From an uncultured virus (IMG/VR IMGVR_UViG_3300046522_000747) (taxonomy: Duplodnaviria; Heunggongvirae; Uroviricota; Caudoviricetes): a stretch of 63,704 nucleotides of DNA. Both the position numbers and the translations under genes were made by a program. A model generated the notes under the pieces. That model was not told the origin of the DNA and made no database searches. It saw only the letters and a program-made list of their open reading frames with translations. Positions 5,443 to 58,744 of the stretch are shown piece by piece. The stretch's first letter is position 1. Each line of letters opens with the position of its first letter. The stretch is from IMG/VR virus record IMGVR_UViG_3300046522_000747. The stretch is one strand, 5' to 3'.

Positions 5443-7042
<1,600 letters not shown>

Positions 7043-8355: not shown

Positions 8356-8892
8356 TTAGTAGCTCATTCCTGCGGCCATCGCCATCTCTTTGTCTTTTCG
8401 AATCAGGAAATCGCGAGCCACTGTCGTGCATTTTCCAAGCAGATTGAGCTTTTTACCTCTCCATTGCGCCGGATCGAAAATTCTCGGGTCATTCTCATCT
8501 CTGCCTGCACCCCAGGTGTCGTCGTATTTTGAGGCTTCCACCAGGATTGTTCCGACTGTTGAAATCAGCAGATCTTTAAGGTCTTTGTGTTGTGAATATT
8601 TAGCGATCAGGCCTGCCGTCACGATCCGCTCTCTTTTAGCGATCCAGACTTCCTCCACAAATGGGCTGACCTGTTTACCCAAGTCTTTTTGTCTTTGCTG
8701 ACACCTTGGGCCTGTTGTCTCCAAAATTTTCTGTGCGGTAACAGTGTCTCCAAATAGCATGGCCTTGCTGTACATCATGTACTGTTCCATGCAATTGAAG
8801 GTAATGTTTTTTACTTTAAAATCACGCAAATACCAATTTGAAAACGCGTCTTGAGCCGAGAAAAATAGAGTGAATCCATTAGCTATTTTCAT
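8356..8892 (-). CDS. NADAR (YbiA-like) family hydrolase
   Basis: FSNWY, EQYMMYSKAMLFGD, LVEASKYDDTWGAG and WRG..NLLGK motifs. Confidence 0.9.
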   Translation of the reverse strand: MKIANGFTLFFSAQDAFSNWYLRDFKVKNITFNCMEQYMMYSKAMLFGDTVTAQKILETTGPRCQQRQKDLGKQVSPFVEEVWIAKRERIVTAGLIAKYSQHKDLKDLLISTVGTILVEASKYDDTWGAGRDENDPRIFDPAQWRGKKLNLLGKCTTVARDFLIRKDKEMAMAAGMSY

Positions 8893-10465: not shown

Positions 10466-11320
10466 TTACGCCGCGAGGTCTTCAAAGTCCAACCCCAACT
10501 CCTCCAGGCGATCCTGAAGTTTCCCCGTCGCGTCCTTGAGGATCTGACGGCAGCGTTCGCGGGAGATGTTCAACTGACGGCCCAGGTCGGCACAGGTGGT
10601 TTCCTCACGGCCATCGAAGCCGTAGTAGTTCAAAACGATGAACTTCTCACGGTCGTTGAGGCTTGCAATGATGTTTGTGATCATTTCGGAAGTGTCCTTT
10701 TCTTCAATATCATTCAACGGGTTGCAGTTGTCTTCCAGAAAACTGACAAAACTTTTGCTTTCCGAATCATCGTCATCGACAGACGCGTCGAGTGAAAGAC
10801 TGAACTGGACGGCTTCTGTGAGCTTGCGTACCGACGACTCATCAATATCGAGTAGCTTGGCAACTTCATGGTCAAAAACATCGCGATTGAGCTGCTGCTC
10901 CAATTTTCGTCTGGTGCGCACTACCTTGTGGGCGGCTTTTACGACGTGGGTCGGAATATGCACCGCTTTGTTTTTGATCAGCATCTCTTCGATTTTGGTT
11001 CGAATCCAGCGATCTGCATAAGTGCTGAAAGCAAAGTTCAGCTCTGGGTCAAATTTGTCTACGGCTGTCAGCAGCCCTTCGTTGCCAGCAGCGACCAGCT
11101 CCTCGTATTGAACACCCGACTTGAGGTAGGCTTTGGCAATGTGCATGACCAATCGCAGGTTGCGTTCAACCATACGAGAGCGCGCTCGCATGTCGCCGTT
11201 GCGGGCCAGTCGCGCCAGCGCAATCATCTCATCGTGAGGGATAACGTCGAGTTTCTGAACCTCGTTTTTGTAGACGGAGAAGGAACGGGCTTCTTCAGAA
11301 AATTTCTGTGCTACTGACAT
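10466..11320 (-). CDS. RNA polymerase sigma-70 family factor (RpoS/RpoH-sized, no region 1.1)
   Basis: NLRLVMHIAK, GLLTAVDKFDPE..FSTYADRWIR (region 2), SLD, and ISRERCRQI (region 4). Confidence 0.92.
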   Translation of the reverse strand: MSVAQKFSEEARSFSVYKNEVQKLDVIPHDEMIALARLARNGDMRARSRMVERNLRLVMHIAKAYLKSGVQYEELVAAGNEGLLTAVDKFDPELNFAFSTYADRWIRTKIEEMLIKNKAVHIPTHVVKAAHKVVRTRRKLEQQLNRDVFDHEVAKLLDIDESSVRKLTEAVQFSLSLDASVDDDDSESKSFVSFLEDNCNPLNDIEEKDTSEMITNIIASLNDREKFIVLNYYGFDGREETTCADLGRQLNISRERCRQILKDATGKLQDRLEELGLDFEDLAA

Positions 11321-18635: not shown

Positions 18636-20303
18636 TTAGCGGCGAGCAGCAATTTCAGCGAGGATTTTCGCCTTTAGCTCAGGATCGGCTTCCACTTTTG
18701 CAATCACGGCAGGTTTACCACGACCAATGCCTTTTTCTTCGTACATCGTCCAGGCCCGAGCTTGGGTGAACACGCCCGTGCTGAATGCGTCAATCATCCA
18801 TTGTGGCTCACCGCCTTCTGGTAGCACTGGCGCTACGTAGGGCGTTTTCACCGCATCTACCACTGCCGCAGCCGCGCTTGGCGGACTCACCGCTTGCTGA
18901 GTATCGATTCGTTCAACAACAGGTTCTGCTGCAAACGAATTGTGTTGCGGCTCGACAGCGAGAGGAGCATTCACTGCAACTGGCTCTTCAATCAGTGGCT
19001 CATCGTCAAAGGAGCTGAACTGAATGTCGCCTTTAGCCGGTTCGAAAGGATCTTTGACCACCGGGGATTCGGAGCTGCCGTGAGACTGAAGGCCGGTCTC
19101 TCCGCCTTCTTCAGAAAAGTCCCCATAAAACGCAGGATCTTTCACCAGAGATACAGGTGGCGTGGTCTTTTGGTAAGGCTCCACAACCAGCTTGGTGGAG
19201 ACCGACTCAACCTGAGGCGTAATCGACTTAGCCATCAGCGCATTGGACGTGGTGCGGCTGACAGGATCATTGGCGCTGGCCACTACGCGGTCAGGCATTT
19301 TCTGTCGGCGGATTTCAGCCTCGATCTCATCGGCGGCTTCAGTGTTTTCTGCCAGCCACTTTTGCGAGTTTGCCTTGCCTTGGCCGATTTTGCTGCCGTT
19401 GTAGGCGTACCATGCACCGGACTTTTCGATCAGACCAAGCTCTACGCCGAGGTCAACCAGTTCGCCGTACTTGTTGATACCCTTGCCATATTCGATCTGG
19501 AATTCAGCCTGTTTGAAGGGGGCAGCCACTTTGTTCTTGATGACCTTGACGCGAGTTTCGCTGCCGGTCACCTCTTCGCCCTCTTTAACTGCGCCTGTGC
19601 GGCGGATATCCAGGCGAACCGAGGCGTAAAACTTCAAGGCGTTACCACCGGTCGTGGTTTCTGGGCTGCCAAACATCACGCCGATCTTCATGCGGATCTG
19701 GTTGATGAAGATCACCAAAGTATTGGATGCTTTGATGTTACCCGTTAGCTTACGCAGAGCTTGGGACATCAGGCGAGCTTGCAGACCAACGTGCATGTCG
19801 CCCATTTCACCTTCAATTTCTGCTTTTGGCACCAGTGCCGCTACGGAGTCGATGATGAGAACGTCGATGGCGTTGGAGCGAACCAGCATGTCGGTGATTT
19901 CCAGGGCCTGCTCACCGGTATCAGGCTGCGACAGGACGAGATCATCGACGTTGACGCCCAACTTCGCGGCGTATTCAGGGTCGAGGGCGTGCTCAGCGTC
20001 CACAAAGGCGCAGGTGCCGCCGAGTTTCTGGCACTGAGCAATGACCGAAAGGGTTAGTGTCGTTTTGCCACTACTCTCCGGTCCGTAGATTTCAACGATG
20101 CGCCCTTTCGGCAGACCGCCGATCCCCAAGGCAATGTCGAGACCCAGCGAGCCAGTCGAAATCGACGGAATCATTTCACGAGGATTATCGCCCATGCGCA
20201 TAACAGCGCCTTTGCCGAATTGTCGCTCGATCTGCCCCAACGCGGCGGCGAGGGCTTTTGCCCTGTTTTCTGTCTTATCATTGCTCTGGCTGGCTTGGCT
20301 CAT
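18636..20303 (-). CDS. recA: recombinase A with ~220-aa C-terminal extension
   Basis: GPESSGKT Walker [35 protein letters not shown]. Confidence 0.97.
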
Positions 20304-20358
20304 TTCGTGTGTCCTGTAGGATTTAAATGTTTAAATCAAATTCTTTTTTCGTAATGCT

Positions 20359-20397
20359 AATATAGTAGTCAATTAAACAATTGTCAATGACTTAAAC
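20359..20397 (-). promoter_or_regulatory. recA sigma-70 promoter with a degenerate palindrome over the -35 box
   Basis: TTGACA (20382-87), 17 bp, TATATT (20359-64); GTCAAT-gac-TTAAAC. Confidence 0.6.
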
Positions 20398-20407
20398 TGT
20401 CACATTA

Positions 20408-20551
20408 TTAATTTCTCGCGCTGGTTTCTTTCTTCAGGCGTCTGTGACGCGGGCCTTGAATAGAGTTGCACGTCCCGCATTTCTCGCCATCGTGAACCAT
20501 GTCACGATCACATTGGTTGCACCAAGTCAGAGTCCCAGTTTTGGGACTCAT
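20408..20551 (-). CDS. small zinc-ribbon protein (47 aa, possibly frameshift-extended from 20600)
   Basis: MSPKTGTLTWCNQCDRDMVHDGEKCGTCNS with two CxxC motifs; not in the ORF track. Confidence 0.55.
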   Translation of the reverse strand: MSPKTGTLTWCNQCDRDMVHDGEKCGTCNSIQGPRHRRLKKETSARN

Positions 20552-23685: not shown

Positions 23686-24219
23686 TCAGAGTCTCCTGAT
23701 GAATTTCGCAGGAACGAAGTCGGTAAGCCAGACCCCGTTGTCGGCAATAAAAAACTCCGTCCCTTCTTTGACCATCTGGCGGGTGTCAATTTCCAGTACG
23801 ACCGGTTCCCTGCGCGGTCGGGCGGATGACAAGTCGCCGGACAGATGCACATGATGTCGCGTGCCTGGAATCAGGCCTTGCTTCATGATGGAATCAATAA
23901 AGCGCAATGTCGTGCCGTGGTACAGCGTCGGCGGCGGTGTTTTCTTGGTGTGATTGACTTTGACGGTCGGGGTTGAGTGGCCCTGTACACAACGAATGTA
24001 CTTTCCATCTTCAGAGAGGCCGTAACGCCCTTTTTCGTCCTCCTTCACGATCTGCATGAGCATTTCGTAGTCAAGTCCGGGACATTGCGGAGCCGCCTTT
24101 TCAATCAGCTCGCCAATATCAGCCCACGCGTCGTTTCCAAGCGCTAGCCCGATTTTTGCTGGGTCGTGCCGGAGAAAGTAGCACAGAGCAACGCTGATTT
24201 TTCTTAGTGATTTAGCCAT
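23686..24219 (-). CDS. kptA: RNA 2'-phosphotransferase (KptA/Tpt1)
   Basis: LRH, KGRY, IRCVQGHS, LYHGT, HVHLS and NGVWLT motifs. Confidence 0.92.
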   Translation of the reverse strand: MAKSLRKISVALCYFLRHDPAKIGLALGNDAWADIGELIEKAAPQCPGLDYEMLMQIVKEDEKGRYGLSEDGKYIRCVQGHSTPTVKVNHTKKTPPPTLYHGTTLRFIDSIMKQGLIPGTRHHVHLSGDLSSARPRREPVVLEIDTRQMVKEGTEFFIADNGVWLTDFVPAKFIRRL

Positions 24220-25137: not shown

Positions 25138-25761
25138 CTACGCGACGACTTTGAAAAGTGCGTTGCTTGGAAGGCGCTTGGAGCGTTGTGCTTGCAGCCA
25201 GTGCTTGCGGCAGACCGCAGTATACCGATCGTTACCGCCGACCTCGATTTGGCAGCCGCTGGTGACCACGTTGGCTTGTTGGTCGCAGCGCACATTCATC
25301 GTCGCCTTTTCCCCGCAGAAGCAGCGGCTCATTTCCAACTCCTTGAGCTGATCGGCCAACCCAAGCAGGTGTTGACTGCCTTCAAACAGGTTGCCAAACG
25401 CATCGGTACGAATGCCGTAGGCGGCAACATAGATGCCCTCAAGGTCGGCAATCTCGACCATTTGGCGAACCTGCAACGCGGTGCAGAATTGAGCTTCATC
25501 CACCATGACGGCAGTGTATTTGCCATTCTTGCGAGTGTTTTCCTTCAAAATATCAACGAGGCTATCAGTCTCGGTGAAGTTGATGCAGGTGCGGCAGAAG
25601 CCCATCCGGGACTTGATGATACCCAGGCCGTCGCGGGTGTCTTTGATGGATTTGAGCAAAAGAACGCGCAGGCCGCGCTCTTCGTGGCTATGGGCAGACT
25701 GGAGCAGTTGTGCGCTCTTACCTGCGTTCATCGAGCCGTAGTGAAATGTCAGGCTGCCCAT
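25138..25761 (-). CDS. tdk: thymidine kinase
   Basis: YGSMNAGKS P-loop, VDEAQF, YGIRTD, zinc-binding cysteines, YTAVCRKH. Confidence 0.95.
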   Translation of the reverse strand: MGSLTFHYGSMNAGKSAQLLQSAHSHEERGLRVLLLKSIKDTRDGLGIIKSRMGFCRTCINFTETDSLVDILKENTRKNGKYTAVMVDEAQFCTALQVRQMVEIADLEGIYVAAYGIRTDAFGNLFEGSQHLLGLADQLKELEMSRCFCGEKATMNVRCDQQANVVTSGCQIEVGGNDRYTAVCRKHWLQAQRSKRLPSNALFKVVA

Positions 25762-33961: not shown

Positions 33962-34408
33962 TTAGGCGGAGCGATAATGGGCAGTAAAATCAATGCGTGG
34001 CATGTCGGCGTCCAGCGCCAAGCTGATAAGCCAAGGCAGATTCGTTTGTCCGAAACGGCGGATCTCGTTCAGATCGACGGTGATAATGCTCACCTCTTCG
34101 TCGGTCAGCGTTTTGGCATCGTATATGCTGTCGGAGAACATGTAGAACGAGTGAACAATAAAGTCATCGCTGGAGAATTTGGCCAATGGGCGCCAATCAG
34201 ACTCAGTGGTCTGTACCCCAGTTTCTTCCACAAACTCCCGAATCATGCATTGAATGGATGTTTCGCCCAATTCAATGTGACCCCCTACTCCGTTCCACTT
34301 CCCGGCCTGCCACTGTGGCCGATTTTTTGTGATAACCACCATCTTGTGGCGATCCGCACTGAAGGCAAAACCAAGGGTGTACTCTGTTCTAGGGCTGCTA
34401 TTAGACAT
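33962..34408 (-). CDS. NUDIX hydrolase (MutT-like)
   Basis: GGHIELGETSIQCMIREFVEETG Nudix box; start reassigned to 34408; promoter TTGACA-17-TATGAT at 34430-34458. Confidence 0.88.
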   Translation of the reverse strand: MSNSSPRTEYTLGFAFSADRHKMVVITKNRPQWQAGKWNGVGGHIELGETSIQCMIREFVEETGVQTTESDWRPLAKFSSDDFIVHSFYMFSDSIYDAKTLTDEEVSIITVDLNEIRRFGQTNLPWLISLALDADMPRIDFTAHYRSA

Positions 34409-34463
34409 GAAAATCTCCATTTGAAGATCATCATATATAATATTGCGTTTAATGTCAATGTCA

Positions 34464-34901
34464 TTAGTCCGTTTGAGGCTTTTTTCCTCTAGCCTCTCGG
34501 CGAGCATTATCCATTTGTTTGTTAATCAAACAGTCTCCAAACCCATCCTTGGCGGTGATGCCTTCTCCACAATGAGGACAGGTTGGCACCATGTTACGCT
34601 GCCTCCAGGCCTGTTCGGCTTTCTTTGCAGCCAGCAGATGCAGGTTCGCCGCTTTGTCGGCAGCCAACTGAGTTGCTGCGGACTGATGCTTTCGGGAGGC
34701 GTCTTCCCAATGCTCTGCGAGCATTTTAAGGCCCCAGTACGCAGAGACCTGAACCCCACAATCCATGCATCTGACAATTTCGCCGTGATCATCTAGCTCA
34801 ATCGAGCGGTGAGCACAGACGTTTTTGTCGGTACGTGAAACCCACTTCCGATCTGCCTTGGCGATTCTGAAGTCACCAATCTGAATAATATTGTCTGCCA
34901 T
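34464..34901 (-). CDS. zinc-finger hypothetical protein
   Basis: CAH..CMDC..CPHC. Confidence 0.7.
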   Translation of the reverse strand: MADNIIQIGDFRIAKADRKWVSRTDKNVCAHRSIELDDHGEIVRCMDCGVQVSAYWGLKMLAEHWEDASRKHQSAATQLAADKAANLHLLAAKKAEQAWRQRNMVPTCPHCGEGITAKDGFGDCLINKQMDNARREARGKKPQTD

Positions 34902-38254: not shown

Positions 38255-39568
38255 ATGAAAGCCGTTTATCACGAGATAGATTTTGACGTGGACAAGATCA
38301 TTCGCGAAGGGCTTCCCTTCATGAGTGCTTTTTACTCAGATGGCGACGAATTGAACGAAGATGTACACGATCTTTTTTCATTTGCTGCCAATAGCTGCAA
38401 AGAAATGCCGATGTACACCATTAAGGAGTCCAGCTGCGATAGCGTTGCTGAAACCTTCAATGACGTGTACGCGATGATGATCGAAGCGGCAACCAAAGTC
38501 TTTCGTGACAAAAAGGCGCTGTATCACTTTTTTGATTGCGAGTTTTTGCGTACACATGGTAGTTATTTTGTGGAGTACGCGGCGCATACGTTCAGTGCCA
38601 GGGGTATGATTGGGCAGGCCATGTATGGTCGTTTTGATGCTGCGTTTGACCCGGTAACCGAGAAGGTCACTGGGATCTATGAATTCAATGGCGACACACC
38701 TGTCATGCTGTTCGATTCTGTGCATATTCAGAACGATTTGACGCTTCAGGTAACCGGCTCAAATTACGCTCAGTTCAACAATTATTACCCCATGATCACT
38801 GAGATGCTGGAAAAGCATCGTCTGGATTATTCCAAAAACTTTGCGGTGGTGTGTGACACTCGATTCGTCGAAGACATGGCCACTTGTGAAACATTGGCGC
38901 AAATTTTTGGTGAGCATGCGCAAAGCCATTTTCTGGATCTCAAGGATCTTGATTTCGACTATGTGAACAAACGTAAGCCGTTCGTTATTTCTGGTACTGA
39001 CACGTATCTGGATCACATTTTCGTGCTTTCTCCTTGGGAGGAGATGGTTGCAGCGTTTCCTAAGGCCTTCGAAAACTGGCGAGACTGGGTGGATAATGTC
39101 ACGTTCATGGAGCCAGCATGGCGGTGGTTTTTGTCGCATAAGGGCATGTTTGCCTACATCACCCACCTGATGGAGACTGACAAGGACTATTACGCTCGCT
39201 GGAAGCATGTGCCGGGACTGCGCACTTACCTGACTCCGGAACCTTTCCTGAGCAAGGGGGAGCCATACGTCTCCAAGCCTGTGCTGGGCCGACTGTCATC
39301 CAACATCCGCATTCATAATGGCCTGGGCGAGCTTGAGCACGAAAGTCAGGGCGGGTATGAAGACTGTGAGCGGGTGTACCAGGAATTTTGTCCACCTCAC
39401 CGTGTCGAGGGTCGCAATAACTTCATTCTTGGCATGTGGATGGTTTCAGAGGCTCGTACGTTGCTGTCCGGTCATGTTGGTCATGCGGCAACTATGTGTA
39501 TCCGTGAGTTTGATGCGCCAGTACTGGAACTGACTAACGAGCGTTTCATTCCTCACATTGTTATTTGA
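38255..39568 (+). CDS. glutathionylspermidine synthase family ATP-grasp protein (YgiC-like)
   Basis: YGRFD, YEFNGDTP, PWE, FMEPAW..SHKG, YVSKPVLGR, VYQEF, IRE..RFIPH. Confidence 0.88.
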   Translation: MKAVYHEIDFDVDKIIREGLPFMSAFYSDGDELNEDVHDLFSFAANSCKEMPMYTIKESSCDSVAETFNDVYAMMIEAATKVFRDKKALYHFFDCEFLRTHGSYFVEYAAHTFSARGMIGQAMYGRFDAAFDPVTEKVTGIYEFNGDTPVMLFDSVHIQNDLTLQVTGSNYAQFNNYYPMITEMLEKHRLDYSKNFAVVCDTRFVEDMATCETLAQIFGEHAQSHFLDLKDLDFDYVNKRKPFVISGTDTYLDHIFVLSPWEEMVAAFPKAFENWRDWVDNVTFMEPAWRWFLSHKGMFAYITHLMETDKDYYARWKHVPGLRTYLTPEPFLSKGEPYVSKPVLGRLSSNIRIHNGLGELEHESQGGYEDCERVYQEFCPPHRVEGRNNFILGMWMVSEARTLLSGHVGHAATMCIREFDAPVLELTNERFIPHIVI

Positions 39569-41757: not shown

Positions 41758-43491
41758 TTACATGCGTTCGATCACGTTGATGCCGAGAAGCGACAATCCT
41801 TCTTTCAGCGTCTTGCCGGTCATGGAAACGAGCGCAAGGCGATGCTCCAGGGTGAGATTGCTCACCTTGTCAGACAGGATCGGGCAATGCTCGTAGAAGG
41901 ATGAGAACAGGCTCGCGACTTCATAGAGGTAATTGCAAAGGACATGCGGCGTACCGTTTTTGGCGACTTCATTGAGGATATCACCAAAGCAGACCAACTT
42001 TTTGCCCAGATCAATCTCCTGTTCCTCGACCAGCTTGAAGTAAACCTGAGCGGCCATCTCGCGATTTGTTTTGCGGAAAATACCCGCGCAACGGGTGTAG
42101 GCGTAGAGCAGGTACGGGGCGGTGTTGCCTTCAAAGCTCAGCATCTGATCGAAGTCGAAGACATAATCGCTGGCGCGATGTTTCGAAAGATCAGCATATT
42201 TCACAGCTGCGACGCCCACGACCTTGGCGATTTCGACGGCCTCGGCATTATCCATATCTGGATTTTTCGACTGAACCAGCACCAACGCCCGATCCTGTGC
42301 TTCGTCGAGCAAATCAGAGAGCTTTATAGTGCCGCCATCACGGCTTCTAAACGGACGACCATCTTTACCATTCATGGTGCCGAACTCCATATGGGTCAGC
42401 TCGCAGAATGGGTGGCAAAGCTCTGCCTGTTGGGCAATTTTGAAAACCATTTCAAAATGCTGGCTCTGACGCTTATCAACAAAGTACAGCACGCGATTGG
42501 CGTGCAGATCATGACTGCGGTGTTCTATCGCAGCAAGATCGGTCGTTGAATACAAGTATCCGCCACCGGCCTTTTGAACAATCATCGGCAACGGTTCGCC
42601 TTCCTTGTTCTGGTAGCCATCCAGGAATACGCATTGGGCGCCCTCACTTTCGGAGAGCATCTTGGCGTCTCTGAGCGATTGCATGATGCCTGGAAGCTTC
42701 GGATTGTAGAAGCTCTCGCCTTTGACATCCTTCTCGGTGAGCTGCACGTTCAGGCGCTGATAGATGGCCTGACAGTGTGAAAGAGAGACATCACGGAATG
42801 CCTGCCATTTTTTCAGGGTTTCTGCGTCACCAGATTGCAGGGCGACGACCAATTCACGAGCGCGATCAGCAAACGCAGGGGATGAGTCAAAGCTCTTTTT
42901 GGAGGCAACATAGAAGGCTTCAAGATCCTTGAGGTCGGCGCCATCATCTTGGCTTTCGCTGAGTTCCATTTGTGCGAGCAGCATGCCGAATTGGGTGCCC
43001 CAGTCGCCCACATGGTTTTGCAGGATGACGGTGGAACCCAAGTAGCGAATAACGCGAGCGACCGAATCACCGAGGATGGTAGAGCGCAGATGACCTACGT
43101 GCATTTCCTTGGCGAGATTGGGGGAGGACAAGTCCACAACGACAGTGGTTGGCCAATTATGATCAAACACGCCCAGATGGTCTGAATCTTCGAGATCTTC
43201 GAGGAGATTCTGAACCATGGAAATATCGAGGGTAAAATTGATGAAGCCTGGGCCTGCAATCTCAACCTTGGAGAAGAAATCTCCCCGAGGCAGATTGTCC
43301 ACCAATATCTGCGCGAGTTCGCGAGGCTTCATTTGAAGTTGTGGTGCAAGTACCATGGCTGCATTAGTTGCGTAATCGCCATGAGATTTGTGTTTTGTTG
43401 CTTCAAGGACAACGCGGGATTTATCACATGCCGCAGTAATGGCAATGTGTTCCAATCCTTTCAGCAATAGATTATTTAGTTGTTCTTTCAT
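41758..43491 (-). CDS. argS: arginine--tRNA ligase
   Basis: SSPNLAKEMHVGHLRST (HIGH-type), GDWGTQFG, EGNTAPYLLYAY, C-terminal ERM. Confidence 0.97.
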   Translation of the reverse strand: MKEQLNNLLLKGLEHIAITAACDKSRVVLEATKHKSHGDYATNAAMVLAPQLQMKPRELAQILVDNLPRGDFFSKVEIAGPGFINFTLDISMVQNLLEDLEDSDHLGVFDHNWPTTVVVDLSSPNLAKEMHVGHLRSTILGDSVARVIRYLGSTVILQNHVGDWGTQFGMLLAQMELSESQDDGADLKDLEAFYVASKKSFDSSPAFADRARELVVALQSGDAETLKKWQAFRDVSLSHCQAIYQRLNVQLTEKDVKGESFYNPKLPGIMQSLRDAKMLSESEGAQCVFLDGYQNKEGEPLPMIVQKAGGGYLYSTTDLAAIEHRSHDLHANRVLYFVDKRQSQHFEMVFKIAQQAELCHPFCELTHMEFGTMNGKDGRPFRSRDGGTIKLSDLLDEAQDRALVLVQSKNPDMDNAEAVEIAKVVGVAAVKYADLSKHRASDYVFDFDQMLSFEGNTAPYLLYAYTRCAGIFRKTNREMAAQVYFKLVEEQEIDLGKKLVCFGDILNEVAKNGTPHVLCNYLYEVASLFSSFYEHCPILSDKVSNLTLEHRLALVSMTGKTLKEGLSLLGINVIERM

Positions 43492-45724: not shown

Positions 45725-46534
45725 TTATTTGAATTGTCGAGCCCATTTTACAACACCTGCCGCATCCTGGAGATGTGATAGCGCATCCGACAATTTCGGA
45801 AGTACAACATCAGAGGTCGTAGGAAGGAAGTGAATGCGCTCTTGAGCACGCAGGCTTGGTGGGAACAGATGGAAAACCAAGTTTTCTGCATCAGCCTGCG
45901 GGTCGATGTAAATCACTTCGCGATTGTTCACCAGGGCATTGATTATGAAATTCCACAGATACGGGAATTGCAGTGAGGTGCCGGTCACGATCAGCAAATC
46001 GCACGACGCCGCCGCAAGTACTGAGCGATCCAGGTGGTCATCTTTGAGCAATTCATTAAACATGACAACATCGGGCCGAATCACCGCGCCCTCGGGTTGT
46101 CCGCAACGATAGCATTTCGGAGGAATGCTTACTTCCTCATGCAAACCTAGTTGGTGTTGGGCTTTACAATGCATGCAGTAGTGTCGATGGTACGTGCCAT
46201 GCAGCTCAATGAGCTGATCATCATCAAGACCGGCCAGCCGAGACAGGCCGTCAACGTTCTGAGTGGCCTCAAGAAAAGATTCGCATTGATCAGCAATACG
46301 CTTGATTGCCAAGTGGGTGGTAGAAGGCTCTGCGGTTTTCAGCGCCAAGGTGAAGCGCAGCCAGTATTTCCAGATAAGCTCTGGCCTTTCTTGAAGCGTG
46401 TTGAGCGAAAGGAGCTGCTCTACCGGCATGCCGAATTCTTGTTCTATGTGCGTATAGCGTCCATCAGCGCCACGGTAGGTGCTGAGTCCGCTTCCGGTGC
46501 TGATTCCAGCCCCAGTGATCATCATTACTTTCAT
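45725..46534 (-). CDS. cobB: sirtuin-family NAD-dependent deacylase (CobB-like)
   Basis: TGAGISTGSG, TQNVDGL, ELHG, two CxxC motifs, RPDVVMF, GTSL. Confidence 0.88.
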   Translation of the reverse strand: MKVMMITGAGISTGSGLSTYRGADGRYTHIEQEFGMPVEQLLSLNTLQERPELIWKYWLRFTLALKTAEPSTTHLAIKRIADQCESFLEATQNVDGLSRLAGLDDDQLIELHGTYHRHYCMHCKAQHQLGLHEEVSIPPKCYRCGQPEGAVIRPDVVMFNELLKDDHLDRSVLAAASCDLLIVTGTSLQFPYLWNFIINALVNNREVIYIDPQADAENLVFHLFPPSLRAQERIHFLPTTSDVVLPKLSDALSHLQDAAGVVKWARQFK

Positions 46535-52747: not shown

Positions 52748-53407
52748 TCACAGAGGTGGTACTTGGGTTCTTTGCACTTCATGGCGTAGCGCATCATAGA
52801 TTCGCTGTGCGGTTGTCTTCCCCATGCCCTTGATTGCACAGAGATCAGCAATCGATGCGTTGAAAGCAGCCAGGGCGGAGCCGAAGTGATTCAACAGCAT
52901 GGCGGCGTTATTAGGCCCAACGCCAGCAAGGCCCTCTACCAGATACCGGGACATCAGATCCGATGTCTTCGGCTTCCCTGTACGGATCGGGACGACGTAA
53001 TCCAGCCCCTCTTGTAGATGGCGGGCCATGGTCGCAAGCATCATCGCCGTTTCTTGAGGATTTGCCAGCGTCACCAAGTTAATGCCTCTGATTGCTGTAA
53101 TGTACGAGATGGCGCCAGCAATGGCCTTGTGTTTCATATCTGAACGAGTTCTAAACACGTCACCCTCGATAAGAATCATTGGAGTGGCGTATTCCAGCTT
53201 CATTTTTTCTATTTGCTGAAAGAGGCGCTGGTCTTTTATGGACTGAACGAAGTCGATAGCTGATTTTCGCTCCACAACCGTATTCTCATGCAGTATGTAA
53301 TCACCTGACGAAAGTTCCTTTACCATCACCTCTATGCCTTCCATCGCCTTAAGCTGCTGGATCATAGTGGATTTGGTCTCTCTGCTATCGGCGACGATGA
53401 TTGCCAT
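52748..53407 (-). CDS. ERCC4/XPF-family nuclease with tandem HhH motifs
   Basis: DSRE, GDY, VERKS..DF..SI.D.RLFQQ, LIEG, GVGP and GMGK HhH motifs. Confidence 0.88.
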   Translation of the reverse strand: MAIIVADSRETKSTMIQQLKAMEGIEVMVKELSSGDYILHENTVVERKSAIDFVQSIKDQRLFQQIEKMKLEYATPMILIEGDVFRTRSDMKHKAIAGAISYITAIRGINLVTLANPQETAMMLATMARHLQEGLDYVVPIRTGKPKTSDLMSRYLVEGLAGVGPNNAAMLLNHFGSALAAFNASIADLCAIKGMGKTTAQRIYDALRHEVQRTQVPPL

Positions 53408-57088: not shown

Positions 57089-57570
57089 TCCGTAATCTCA
57101 TCGGTTGCTGGTACGTTGTCAGGGTCGTATTTCCATTGAACGACGGTCACGCCCTCAGGTATGTTGAACCACGTTCCGGCATACGCATATAGGTCTGTGA
57201 TCCCGCCATTACCACGTCCCGGCCAGTAGCCCATGTATTCCACGATCACAGAATGAATCTCAGGAGGAAGCGTTAGATCGGTAACCCACTCCCCCAAGGG
57301 ATATTCGAAAGGACTGATCGCCATTGGCCTTTTGGCGTCCAAAGAGCAGTTTTCGCGCAAAAACATCCATCCGGTAATCTTTACGCTTTCAGGCACGTTG
57401 AACCACTCGCCTTTATAGGCATAGATGTCAGCATATGCCCCTGTTCCACGCCCAGGCCAATATCCTTCATATCGACCAATGACAACCTCCATGTCGGGAG
57501 GAATTGTGCCGTCATTGACCCATTTTCCGAGCTTAACTTTTTTGGTGTCAACCATTCGGGTTCCAGGCAT
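57085..57570 (-). CDS. Trp-rich protein with two tandem repeats
   Basis: LG.WV.D.T.PP..Y.GYWPGRG.G...D.YAY.G.WFN.PE.V....W occurs twice. Confidence 0.75.
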   Translation of the reverse strand: MPGTRMVDTKKVKLGKWVNDGTIPPDMEVVIGRYEGYWPGRGTGAYADIYAYKGEWFNVPESVKITGWMFLRENCSLDAKRPMAISPFEYPLGEWVTDLTLPPEIHSVIVEYMGYWPGRGNGGITDLYAYAGTWFNIPEGVTVVQWKYDPDNVPATDEITE

Positions 57571-58744
57571 TTATGCTCTTCTTGGTGTCGCTAATAAGCT
57601 TGGCCATTGTTCCGGCGCCCTGACGGTCAGTCAGCTTTTTTGTGCCTTCCAGGGCTTTCAGTTCGTTTTGAGCGGCACTATTGCCTCGCTCAGCACACAA
57701 GGAAAACCAGACGTAGGCTTGAGCCTCCCTGTCAGATCCACCGTAAGTGCCCAGAGAGAGTCCATTGGCGTAAGCGTACATTGCCGATACATCACCAGAC
57801 AGGGCTGCCTTTTCCATGTCACTACTGGCGTTGGCCTTATCGCCCGCAGTCAGGCGACGTTTCGCCCGAGCAACGAGGGCTTGTGGCTGACCGGCATTTG
57901 CAGCCGCGTCCAGGTGCGCCAGAGAGTCCGCACCTGACTTTTTACTCAATAGGTACAGCTGATACGCCGCGTCGGCATCACCCGCTTGATATGCCTCATT
58001 AAGATAAAATCTTCCCAAGTCAGGGTCATTGAGATTCGGTTGGTACACGTTAATCAGTAAAAGCCCATACTCTCGTTTCGCACGTACACTTTTGGCGGCT
58101 GCCTGCTCCATCATGCTTCGACCAAGGCTTAGGTCGCCAGTCGTTGGTTTTTTCAGCTCGTTCCAGGCAAGAACGCGCAGTGCTTCAGGGTGTCCAAGCT
58201 GATTGGCCTGCTCAAGATGAATGTTGGCAAGGTCTTGATTGACCGGAACGATATCGCCTTTCATGTAATGCTTGGCTAGCAGGTAATACGCCTCAGCATT
58301 GCCCTGTGATGCCGCCTCTTCAAGCAGCACCAGCATCGAACCGAATTCCTCATTCTTTTCGGCTGCCTTGGCTTCCTGAAGCTTATCCTCACCGCCCGAC
58401 AGAGCCTGTGTCGGAGCCACCTCCACCATAGGTGTTTCGATGGGTGCAGGCGTTGGCTGGTAGCCGTAGTAACCCGATGTGTTGTACTGGTCTTGTGACG
58501 TTGGGTAATAGGTATCTGAGGGTGGCTCAATCGTTGGGATAGGTACGGCGTCAGCAAACGGTTGCTCAACATAGGTTGAGTCGGGCGATTGATTTACAGT
58601 GGTGCCTTCTTGAACGACCGGAAGGGTTACATCCAGGTCGGTGTACTGAAAGCTTTCTCGGCGACTGGTTTCAAAGGGCGTAATTTGGACGCAGCCCGAC
58701 ATCAGTGTGCTGACGACAGCCAGTGACAATAGTGTTTTGTTCAT
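57548..58744 (-). CDS. Sel1-repeat lipoprotein
   Basis: lipobox MSGC; AASQGNAEAYYLLA, AALSGDVSAMYAYA, AYVWFSLCAERGN. Confidence 0.85.
   Translation of the reverse strand: MNKTLLSLAVVSTLMSGCVQITPFETSRRESFQYTDLDVTLPVVQEGTTVNQSPDSTYVEQPFADAVPIPTIEPPSDTYYPTSQDQYNTSGYYGYQPTPAPIETPMVEVAPTQALSGGEDKLQEAKAAEKNEEFGSMLVLLEEAASQGNAEAYYLLAKHYMKGDIVPVNQDLANIHLEQANQLGHPEALRVLAWNELKKPTTGDLSLGRSMMEQAAAKSVRAKREYGLLLINVYQPNLNDPDLGRFYLNEAYQAGDADAAYQLYLLSKKSGADSLAHLDAAANAGQPQALVARAKRRLTAGDKANASSDMEKAALSGDVSAMYAYANGLSLGTYGGSDREAQAYVWFSLCAERGNSAAQNELKALEGTKKLTDRQGAGTMAKLISDTKKSINAWNPNG

Follow-up and report, generated by a model that had tools for sequence, protein, structure and literature searches.

The locus examined in this work lies in a 63.7-kb stretch of DNA (hereafter the window), where an open reading frame at 18636..20303 on the minus strand encodes an extended RecA of 555 aa followed by a stop codon. 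Its N-terminal helix and ATPase core (aa 16-277; 19473..20258, minus strand) match Pfam PF00154 at E 4.3e-141 (469 bits, cut-off 27), the protein scores 563.4 bits against TIGR02012, above the cut-off of 325.3, and the core is 84-86% identical to that of chromosomal Pseudomonas RecA. The P-loop GPESSGKTT, the L2 stretch, DIRR and RVKVIKNK are all present in the translation; site II, the P-loop and L2 were mapped by way of such conserved motifs, with residue roles taken from a portion of PMC4666392. The core is followed by the canonical RecA C-terminal domain (CTD1; aa 280-334, 19302..19466, minus strand; Pfam PF21096), which carries equivalents of K286, K297 and K302 in 15/15 family members. 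Beyond CTD1 lie a low-complexity, acidic linker of 165 aa with 12% Pro (aa 335-499; 18807..19301, minus strand) and a diverged second RecA C-terminal domain of 56 aa (CTD2; aa 500-555; 18639..18806, minus strand), recognized by sequence, profile and fold. For the whole protein the RecA_C model PF21096 gives 97.6 bits and is reported with two stretches. With 555 aa and two CTDs, this RecA departs from the canonical plan of one CTD, a short tail and ~350 aa. Among 120 RecA relatives listed, 113 measure 346-355 aa, the remaining seven being the extended P0004, P0005, P0006, P0017 and P0019, together with P0018 (500 aa) and P0021 (376 aa). Together these data show that ORF 18636..20303 is a complete bacterial-type RecA in which the short C-terminal tail has been swapped for a tether and a second CTD, and the span marked in an earlier note on this DNA, 18636-19480, is right in taking in CTD1, linker, CTD2 and stop codon.

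The earlier note had proposed that the protein carries a duplicated CTD on a linker of ~165 aa, a proposal upheld by sequence, profile and fold evidence. Within the window protein, Smith-Waterman alignment of CTD1 with CTD2 yields z 5.9, a score reached by 0/2000 shuffles, and the same internal similarity holds in 7/7 testable family members (z 5.9-9.7). The gapless alignment claimed for the two domains likewise stands, running over 53 columns across the family, while hhalign joins the CTD2 and CTD1 profiles over 46 ungapped columns with 97% probability (E 9.5e-11). A CTD1 profile detects the terminal module, always at the C-terminus, in 19/19 family tails from four deep subclades. The expected RecA_C profile match at the protein end was obtained in part: the last 64 aa alone match this family and no other (E 3.3e-4, profile positions 7-53 of 57), but their 21.2 bits lie below the Pfam gathering cut-off of 27. 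Elsewhere in the family PF21096 is matched singly by 10/13 CTD2s at E<=0.01 (best 1.1e-9), with nothing else matched. Searched against all PDB chains, a CTD2-only profile finds RecA, aligned at its CTD, in 23 of the 24 matches at E<=10, and matches the isolated CTD 1aa3 at E 3.3e-5. We rejected PF27531, which is listed on relatives, as a model for CTD2, as it is also listed on ordinary 347-aa RecAs; a literature search found no mention of it.

Structure prediction agrees with the profile evidence. AlphaFold run on a CTD2-only alignment predicts an alpha-beta3-alpha2 topology (pLDDT 82.8), which can be superposed on the solved structures of RecA CTDs and bears out the suggestion that the last ~55 aa would adopt the RecA_C fold. 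The best 50 Foldseek matches listed for this model are all RecA (TMq 0.58-0.78, rmsd 0.9-2.8 A), with E-values of 4.4e-3 to 3.8e-2 and none <=1e-3, and VIA-align against 48,161 chains places RecA in the top three positions (Z 9.2, 8.5 and 6.2), the next chain scoring 4.0. Matches to a viral fold library are weak (best E 0.033) and mostly to phage RecAs. A full-length AlphaFold model built from a 4-sequence alignment (mean pLDDT 33) leaves even the core unfolded and is too poor to read. We conclude that CTD2 is a true, diverged copy of RecA_C that is predicted to be properly folded; a search of the window's six frames found no other RecA_C-like module.

The linker consists mainly of V (13%), P (12%), A (11%), S (10%) and E (9%) and carries a net charge of -14 in the window and -13 to -22 across the window's clade, whereas linkers of other subclades are neutral. 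Family linkers measure between 64 and 180 aa, and the window linker is 32-36% identical to those of clade relatives. Two short islands stand out: KMP[DG]R..A.AN..VS.T.SNA..AK (aa 335-359; 19227..19301, minus strand), which is kept in 5/5 window-clade sequences, and the acidic-aromatic [DE]PF...D..FS (aa 418-431; 19011..19052, minus strand), located in an acidic stretch of the tail. The window linker contains no tandem repeats and no third CTD copy (z -0.1); a partial third copy in the linker of one subclade is marginal (z 2.4-3.9). That the linker is flexible, as had been suggested, is consistent with its composition, poor conservation and variable length, but a simple charge-hydropathy calculation places it on the 'folded' side and does not class it as disordered.

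A 398-aa ORFan of the window at 57548-58744 has homologs in 4/4 Pseudomonas megaplasmids of ~1 Mb and occurs in 135 PLSDB records, all from Pseudomonas, Stutzerimonas or Halopseudomonas; for two other window ORFs, 0/4 of these megaplasmids have homologs, and the window sigma factor finds only weak matches on them. An origin in phage was set aside on the grounds that the window holds no tRNA, that 63 window ORFs scanned gave no structural PHROG match, and that 50,697 phage records contain neither the 57548-58744 ORF nor the RecA tail. No conjugation or replication genes were recognized in the 63.7 kb, which represent part of an element. The window is accordingly best described as megaplasmid-like, a distant relative of the Pseudomonas megaplasmids, whose supergroup takes in pMPPla107-like and IncP-2-like replicons, and probably not a phage, and because of this relationship the premise of the earlier note, that a mobile-element RecA operates alongside a host RecA, holds. 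Upstream of recA lies a promoter-like site, TTGACA-17-TATATT (20359..20387, minus strand), which agrees with the consensus at 11/12 positions and is a consensus match only. For the LexA box CTGT-N8-ACAG the window gives 0 matches, and for the Pseudomonas LexA pattern, allowing <=1 mismatch, 18, none of them in the region upstream of recA (20304-20430). A 131-aa ORF downstream of recA gives only a weak DUF3991 match.

The two-CTD layout occurs in about 15 protein clusters among 5.8 billion, and forms the sole RecA of each of four Pseudomonas megaplasmids of 0.90-1.17 Mb (pMPPla107, pBASL58, pPL1 and FeN3W). Close relatives likewise run on past ~350 aa, the extension being a trait of the family and no isolated case, and these data show that the order core-CTD1-linker-CTD2 is inherited within a small family. 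An AU test of a single origin of the extension neither rejects nor establishes it (p 0.337). No related loci were found in the viral, genome and metagenome contigs scanned, and the one RNA run covers only pieces of the conserved core. The extended gene is annotated simply as 'recombinase RecA', and literature searches for a RecA with a tethered second CTD returned no description; the layout has apparently not been described before.

Passages of PMC10954442 and PMC4666392 describe the CTD as a gateway for dsDNA, with DNA contacts made by K280, K282, K286 and K302. The window CTD2 has K at the site equivalent to K302, Q at that of K286 and R at position 300, and across family CTD2s basic residues occupy position 300 in 13/16 sequences, position 302 in 9/16, position 286 in 3/16 and position 297 in 0/16. 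By residue mapping, the known dsDNA-contact surface is only partly kept in CTD2. Net charge separates the domains within the window's clade (CTD2 +1 to +5 vs CTD1 -2 to -5). The CTD2s of the pMPPla107/pBASL58 subclade are acidic (-4 to -6) and have lost the hairpin Gly-Lys, so that DNA binding cannot be a family-wide function of CTD2 without remodelling. Between subclades CTD2s are only 22-35% identical, compared with 58-74% for CTD1s, a rapid divergence that looks more like co-evolution with a partner specific to each lineage than like binding of an unspecific ligand, for instance DNA.

Our preferred interpretation, which we offer tentatively and with rather less than even confidence, is that CTD2 serves as a second, tethered gateway hand for duplex capture, with the acidic tether taking the place of the autoinhibitory tail. 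According to this model, the extended RecA would form filaments on its own or jointly with host RecA, to which it is 85% identical, so that every protomer would bear an extra, weakly binding CTD on a leash with a roughly estimated reach of ~7 nm rms and up to ~59 nm in contour. Duplex DNA would be captured through the basic beta-hairpin tip of CTD2 and then passed to the filament, and the gain might be avidity and reach when homology is sought on a replicon that is very large and present in few copies. The canonical acidic tail is described in part of PMC13076628 as binding core residues R228/K233, inhibiting DNA binding and promoting LexA cleavage; the acidic tether and its acidic-aromatic island may assume this autoinhibitory role at the conserved basic residues of the core. 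The core stretch bound by the canonical tail is intact in the window RecA, and was counted, together with the acidic linker of the window's clade, for replacement of the tail; since linkers are neutral in other subclades, the acidic-tether idea is limited to the window's clade. With regard to DNA capture, the basic hairpin tip of CTD2 (R at 300 and K at 302 in the window) and the positive CTD2 set against a negative CTD1 in the window's clade were counted for it, and the mostly non-basic K286 and K297 equivalents of CTD2s against it.

Were the extension an artefact, an assembly chimera, frameshift or lost stop codon would have fused recA to a downstream gene. Assemblies in one run do break within the conserved core, and PLSDB gene tables show no CDS under the extended recA in 3/3 annotated megaplasmids. 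However, four complete plasmid records and >10 independent protein clusters have the same open frame, a single 25.6-kb contig covers CTD2, linker, CTD1 and a portion of the core without any difference, and a sequencing run from a second study contains a variant of the tail; these independent records and the spanning contig effectively refute such an origin, the chance of which we consider negligible. It is very improbable that the extension is instead a tolerated, functionless relic of an old tandem duplication. CTD2 is faster-evolving than CTD1 everywhere, several CTD1 signature residues are missing from CTD2s, and between pMPPla107 and pBASL58 CTD2 is no better kept than the linker (21% vs 30% identity), all as a relic would predict. 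Nevertheless, that pair is the exception, CTD2 being more conserved than the linker in 14/15 pairs, and the terminal module persists in every one of the 19 tails across the four deep subclades, retains the fold-determining pattern and is modelled with confidence. No family member has the extension cut by a stop codon, and in a natural variant the CTD2 changes are all synonymous (2 synonymous, 0 nonsynonymous), as are both changes in linker island 1 (aa 335-359), compared with 5 synonymous and 7 nonsynonymous changes across the linker. At the level of sequence comparison, these patterns show purifying selection acting on CTD2 while the tether drifts.

Among readings that grant CTD2 a function, one that we regard as somewhat unlikely has it acting as a protein-binding decoy or adaptor, which would grip RecX, a DinI-like or plasmid-specific factor, or fill the LexA groove, and so re-tune filament stability and SOS, alone or in mixed filaments. 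The pattern of CTD2s kept within subclades and diverging fast between them is typical of partner co-evolution and, with the DNA-contact lysines largely lost and no LexA box upstream of the window recA, fits this reading; megaplasmid carriage moreover activates SOS chronically, at a cost to P. fluorescens (PMC8544851), and pMPPla107 makes P. stutzeri more sensitive to quinolones (PMC4105467). The evidence from candidate partners is divided, RecX being encoded at another locus on 2/4 megaplasmids but missing from the other two, and no RecX or other recognizable regulator was found in the window or adjoining recA. Furthermore, most CTD2s have kept or gained a basic hairpin tip, which pure protein binding would not require. 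Self-association, which we judge distinctly unlikely, would have CTD2 and the acidic tether dock on the core, CTD1 or CTD2 of their own or a neighbouring filament, resulting in autoinhibition or linking filaments into bundles or condensates able to bridge DNA over a distance. A folded core joined through a long low-complexity linker to a terminal 'sticker' would suit such multivalent assembly, the canonical tail contacts the core between filaments in a crystal described in a passage of PMC13076628, the core residues so contacted are intact in the window RecA, and the window-clade linker has its two conserved islands; the variation of linker charge across subclades argues against it. On a broader view, which we consider quite improbable, the tethered CTD would give ~1 Mb megaplasmids a means of manipulating host recombination and SOS: the plasmid RecA would co-polymerize with host RecA, and its extra CTD and replaced tail would alter duplex capture, RecX/LexA access or bundling, damping the costly SOS response to megaplasmids. 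If true, this host manipulation would account for the hypersensitivity of P. stutzeri to quinolones when it carries pMPPla107.

RecA is among the most studied of proteins and its plan of N-terminal helix, core, one CTD and short tail is nearly invariant, which makes a conserved variant with a tethered second CTD unexpected. How the CTD contributes to homology search is called an open question in part of a recent preprint (bioRxiv 10.1101/2025.04.21.649820), and a structural role was assigned to the canonical tail only recently, according to a section of PMC13076628. By swapping the tail and doubling the CTD, this family provides a ready-made natural experiment, and a natural 'two-CTD' RecA could help to dissect this contribution of the CTD. 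The variant resides on self-transmissible megaplasmids with published, unexplained DNA-damage phenotypes (a passage of PMC4105467), and related megaplasmids impose SOS-linked fitness costs (a passage of PMC8544851), so that the two-CTD RecA is a concrete candidate, open to testing, for conflict or accommodation between host and plasmid.

Comparison with known systems places these features in context. Canonical RecA, as in E. coli and on Pseudomonas chromosomes (346-355 aa), shares with the window protein the N-terminal helix, ATPase core, L1/L2, site II and one CTD, but ends in a short acidic tail ~15-25 aa past that CTD, whereas the window RecA runs 221 aa further. The nearest counterparts are the RecAs of the pMPPla107/pBASL58 family, also on large Pseudomonas megaplasmids, which have the same core, CTD1, linker and CTD2 and differ in their length of 462-490 aa, their mostly neutral linkers of 85-115 aa, CTD2s only 22-35% identical to that of the window, and a sigma-70 gene that adjoins recA on these megaplasmids and not in the window; the passage of PMC6482414 that mentions these RecAs makes no remark on their architecture. 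RecAs of the 370-530 kb Pseudomonas megaplasmids (e.g. pRBL16) are likewise plasmid-borne paralogs of host RecA within a related megaplasmid supergroup, yet have a normal length of 345 aa and a single CTD. The E. coli CTD (1aa3) and the CTDs of filaments (3cmu, 7jy6) have the alpha-beta3-alpha2 fold in common with the CTD2 model (Z 6.2-9.2), at 19-27% identity and with the K286 and K297 equivalents lost and position 300 newly basic in CTD2. In design the window RecA also resembles SSB, which consists of a folded core, a disordered linker and a conserved C-terminal interaction tip: both are DNA-metabolism proteins that polymerize on ssDNA and bear an interaction element at the far end of a long linker of low complexity. 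The tip of SSB is a short acidic peptide, however, while the window protein ends in a folded 56-aa domain attached to a recombinase core. Finally, the small plasmid anti-SOS protein PsiB, which binds free RecA, offers a parallel in plasmid-encoded action on the host RecA/SOS axis, an anti-SOS role being only hypothetical here; PsiB is an unrelated protein, whereas the window protein is RecA itself with an added domain.

The extended recA gene of the window (18636..20303, minus strand) encodes a 555-residue protein in which a complete RecA is followed by a tethered second copy of its own C-terminal domain (CTD). Pfam assigns aa 16-277 to RecA (E 4.3e-141) and aa 280-334 to RecA_C, the canonical domain (CTD1); the protein scores 563 bits against TIGR02012, for which the cut-off is 325. 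Directly after CTD1 lies a 165-residue linker (aa 335-499), enriched in Val, Pro, Ala, Ser and Glu, with a net charge of -14 and with no tandem-repeat origin found when one was looked for; the final 56 residues form the second domain (CTD2). The promoter region holds a putative, near-consensus sigma-70-type site, and no LexA box was seen there. GC3 declines along the gene (core 0.66, CTD1 0.64, linker 0.53, CTD2 0.50), the linker and CTD2 values lying nearer than those of core and CTD1 to the values of neighbouring genes (0.46 to 0.63).

Taken alone, the last 64 residues match a single Pfam family, RecA_C (E 3.3e-4), at 21.2 bits, under the 27-bit gathering cut-off. Within the window's protein, CTD1 and CTD2 align with a z of 5.9, a score reached by none of 2000 shuffles, and the same similarity is seen in all seven testable relatives (z 5.9-9.7). 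Profile-profile comparison of seven CTD2s with their CTD1 counterparts gave a probability of 97% (E 9.5e-11) across 46 gap-free columns. A CTD1 profile recovered the terminal module from every one of the 19 family tails. When a CTD2-only profile of 13 sequences was run against all PDB chain sequences, 23 of the 24 matches at E<=10 were RecA, aligned at the CTD, with the isolated E. coli CTD (1aa3) matched at E 3.3e-5; the remaining match was telethonin (E 1.4). Searched one by one, 10 of the 13 CTD2s matched PF21096 (best 1.1e-9), the only family hit. PF27531, listed on relatives, was rejected as a CTD2 model because normal RecAs carry it too.

Structure prediction led to the same fold. AlphaFold2, given the CTD2-only alignment, returned a helix, three strands and two helices (mean pLDDT 82.8), and the best 50 Foldseek matches listed from the PDB were all RecA structures (TM on query 0.58-0.78, rmsd 0.9-2.8 A, 50-58 columns); their E-values of 4.4e-3 to 3.8e-2, none of them <=1e-3, are in keeping with the small size of the domain. 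A Foldseek-independent aligner ranked RecA 1-3 among 48,161 chains (Z 9.2, 8.5 and 6.2), with the best unrelated chain at Z 4.0. Together these results establish the two-CTD architecture, and an earlier note, which had described a RecA with a duplicated CTD on a linker, was correct in its coordinates and description. A weak similarity to the C-terminal helices of CTD1 (z 2.4-3.9, a score reached by 2-33 of 1000 shuffles) is seen where the linker begins in three relatives (P0010, P0014 and P0015). This stretch may have survived from an additional partial copy; the window's protein lacks it. Small viral stand-alone proteins with only a RecA_C-like domain may also exist: a 78-aa ESM Atlas cluster (105 members, 71% viral) gives a RecA_C-like match at score 0.80, a lead only, and an 80-aa BFVD entry matches weakly (E 0.14).

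A survey for this architecture, which the earlier note had called for, revealed that it recurs across relatives. The tail, used as a query against 5.8 billion protein clusters, yielded three relatives (526-555 aa); its profile, run on 1.84 billion representatives, yielded four contig-truncated RecA fragments preserving the order CTD1-linker-CTD2; and a CTD2 profile limited to longer proteins yielded ten RecAs of 445-570 aa. The clusters of two of these ten have longest contigs of 0.90 and 0.95 Mb, and one is labelled at source 'recombinase RecA (plasmid) [Pseudomonas sp. PLMAX]'. The family member P0013 was matched by 1384 records in PLSDB (72,556 plasmids), three of which match at least 80% of its length: pPL1 (1,168,067 bp), pBASL58 (904,163 bp) and the FeN3W plasmid (909,734 bp). 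Read directly, the ORF of pMPPla107 (971,889 bp) encodes a 468-aa RecA whose divergent CTD2 retains the DLGV first-helix signature of CTD1. A listing of the 120 nearest relatives by core contains 113 proteins of 346-355 aa. Its remaining seven members are the extended P0004, P0005, P0006, P0017 and P0019, a 376-aa sequence, and P0018, a 500-aa metagenomic protein with ~160 aa of core and CTD repeated internally, possibly through misassembly on its 2.5-kb contig. A sigma-70 family gene divergently adjoins the extended recA in all three annotated megaplasmids (FeN3W, pMPPla107 and pBASL58), in whose records the PLSDB gene tables, known to be incomplete, have no CDS under recA.

A core tree of 22 rows combined 14 extended and 8 normal RecAs. 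Of the near-identical normal RecAs only 7 were retained, and P0004 (near-identical), P0016 (N-truncated) and P0007-P0010 (fragments) were excluded. The tree contains four well-supported extended subclades, and a single origin of the extension is neither rejected nor shown (AU test, p 0.337). Linker length ranges from 64 to 180 aa across the family. In all but one of 15 pairs (pMPPla107 vs pBASL58), CTD2 is better conserved than the linker (for example 54% vs 36%, 65% vs 27% and 85% vs 58% identity). CTD2 is less conserved than CTD1 in every pair, with identities across subclades of 22-35% vs 58-74%. Two islands of the linker (aa 335-359 and aa 418-431) are conserved in the window's clade. In a natural tail variant from a run of a separate study, numbers being small, CTD2 has two synonymous and no nonsynonymous differences, the linker five and seven, and both differences in island 1 are synonymous.

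The CTD has been described as the gateway for dsDNA entry into the RecA filament (PMC10954442); K280, K282, K286 and K302 contact DNA, and K286 and K302 are well conserved and required for strand exchange (PMC4666392). With E. coli numbering inferred through gap-free alignment, equivalents of K286, K297 and K302 are retained in 15 of 15 CTD1s, whereas CTD2 is basic at these positions in 3, 0 and 9 of 16; conversely position 300, always Gln in CTD1, is basic in 13 of 16 CTD2s. In the window's clade net charges are -2 to -5 for CTD1, +1 to +5 for CTD2 and -13 to -22 for the linker, and in the pMPPla107/pBASL58 clade CTD2 carries -4 to -6. According to PMC13076628, the acidic tail of canonical RecA contacts R228/K233 of the core; it represses DNA binding and strand exchange and stimulates LexA cleavage. 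The core stretch that it contacts is intact in the window's RecA. RecX has been described as reaching from one subunit's CTD to the core of its neighbour (PMC9252578). Of the four megaplasmids, pMPPla107 and the FeN3W plasmid encode their own RecX homolog (PF02631), far from recA (W02:441393-441512 and W01:167659-167784; 54 and 52 bits), and no match was found in pPL1 or pBASL58.

From these features we infer a function for CTD2 and its tether. We tentatively favor CTD2 as an accessory hand that would capture duplex DNA via its basic hairpin tip, with the acidic tether, in the window's clade, standing in for the autoinhibitory tail. The main rival, to which we give somewhat less credence, is that CTD2 binds regulators (RecX, LexA or a plasmid factor) as a decoy or adaptor, a reading that its rapid divergence between clades and the loss of its DNA-contact lysines would favor. 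A self-association or bundling module appears improbable, and a functionless relic more so; an artefact is barely credible, with conservation and the independent records counting against these last two.

Regarding the replicon, 56 of 76 ORFs scanned in the window have no Pfam family, and neither tRNAs nor phage structural matches were found in it. A 398-aa ORF (57548-58744, minus), whose homologs carry TPR/Sel1 repeat annotations, has homologs in all four ~1 Mb megaplasmids (31-39% identity). It is present in 135 records of PLSDB (132 Pseudomonas, 2 Stutzerimonas, 1 Halopseudomonas) and in no phage record searched, which makes it a possible lineage marker for Pseudomonas-group megaplasmids; two other ORFs were found in none of the four. 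On sequence grounds we conclude that the window is probably a distant relative of Pseudomonas megaplasmids. Its recA is present in one run from rhizosphere (X2) and one from soil (X5), and the 84-86% identity of the core to chromosomal Pseudomonas RecA suggests that it likely resides alongside a very similar host RecA. The window also encodes an ERCC4 nuclease domain with helix-hairpin-helix in an XPF/Mus81/Hef-like layout (52748-53407, minus; Pfam E 3.7e-26 and 4.6e-11), unmatched in PADLOC; scattered NAD/ADP-ribose-related genes (NADAR, Tpt1/KptA RNA 2'-phosphotransferase, NUDIX and Sir2; 8356-8892, 23686-24219, 33962-34507 and 45725-46534, all minus), of which NADAR is also PADLOC candidate PDC-M42C (E 7.7e-40) and NUDIX matches PDC-S07 (E 2.1e-9); and housekeeping-type paralogs, namely arginyl-tRNA synthetase (41758-43491, minus), thymidine kinase (25138-25761, minus), a sigma-70 factor (10466-11320, minus), a peroxiredoxin and thioredoxin-reductase-like pair (5443-7042, plus) and a glutathionylspermidine-synthase-like protein (38255-39568, plus).

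Full-text searches of the main texts of openly accessible papers turned up no account of a two-CTD RecA. In the one passage that mentions it (PMC6482414), RecA on these megaplasmids is listed among housekeeping genes with no comment on its form; it is unmentioned in two pMPPla107 papers (PMC4105467, by whole-word search, and 10.1101/538629); PMC8544880 was discarded as a mention, all three matches falling within 'recapitulate'. P. stutzeri carrying pMPPla107 is less resistant to quinolones and a DNA intercalator (PMC4105467), other Pseudomonas megaplasmids impose SOS-linked costs (PMC8544851), and 10.1101/2025.04.21.649820 treats the contribution of the CTD to homology search as still open, which together make the two-CTD RecA testable. 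Each of pMPPla107, pBASL58, pPL1 and the FeN3W plasmid carries exactly one RecA, of the extended form, unlike the pRBL16-type 370-kb megaplasmid, whose RecA is of normal length (345 aa).
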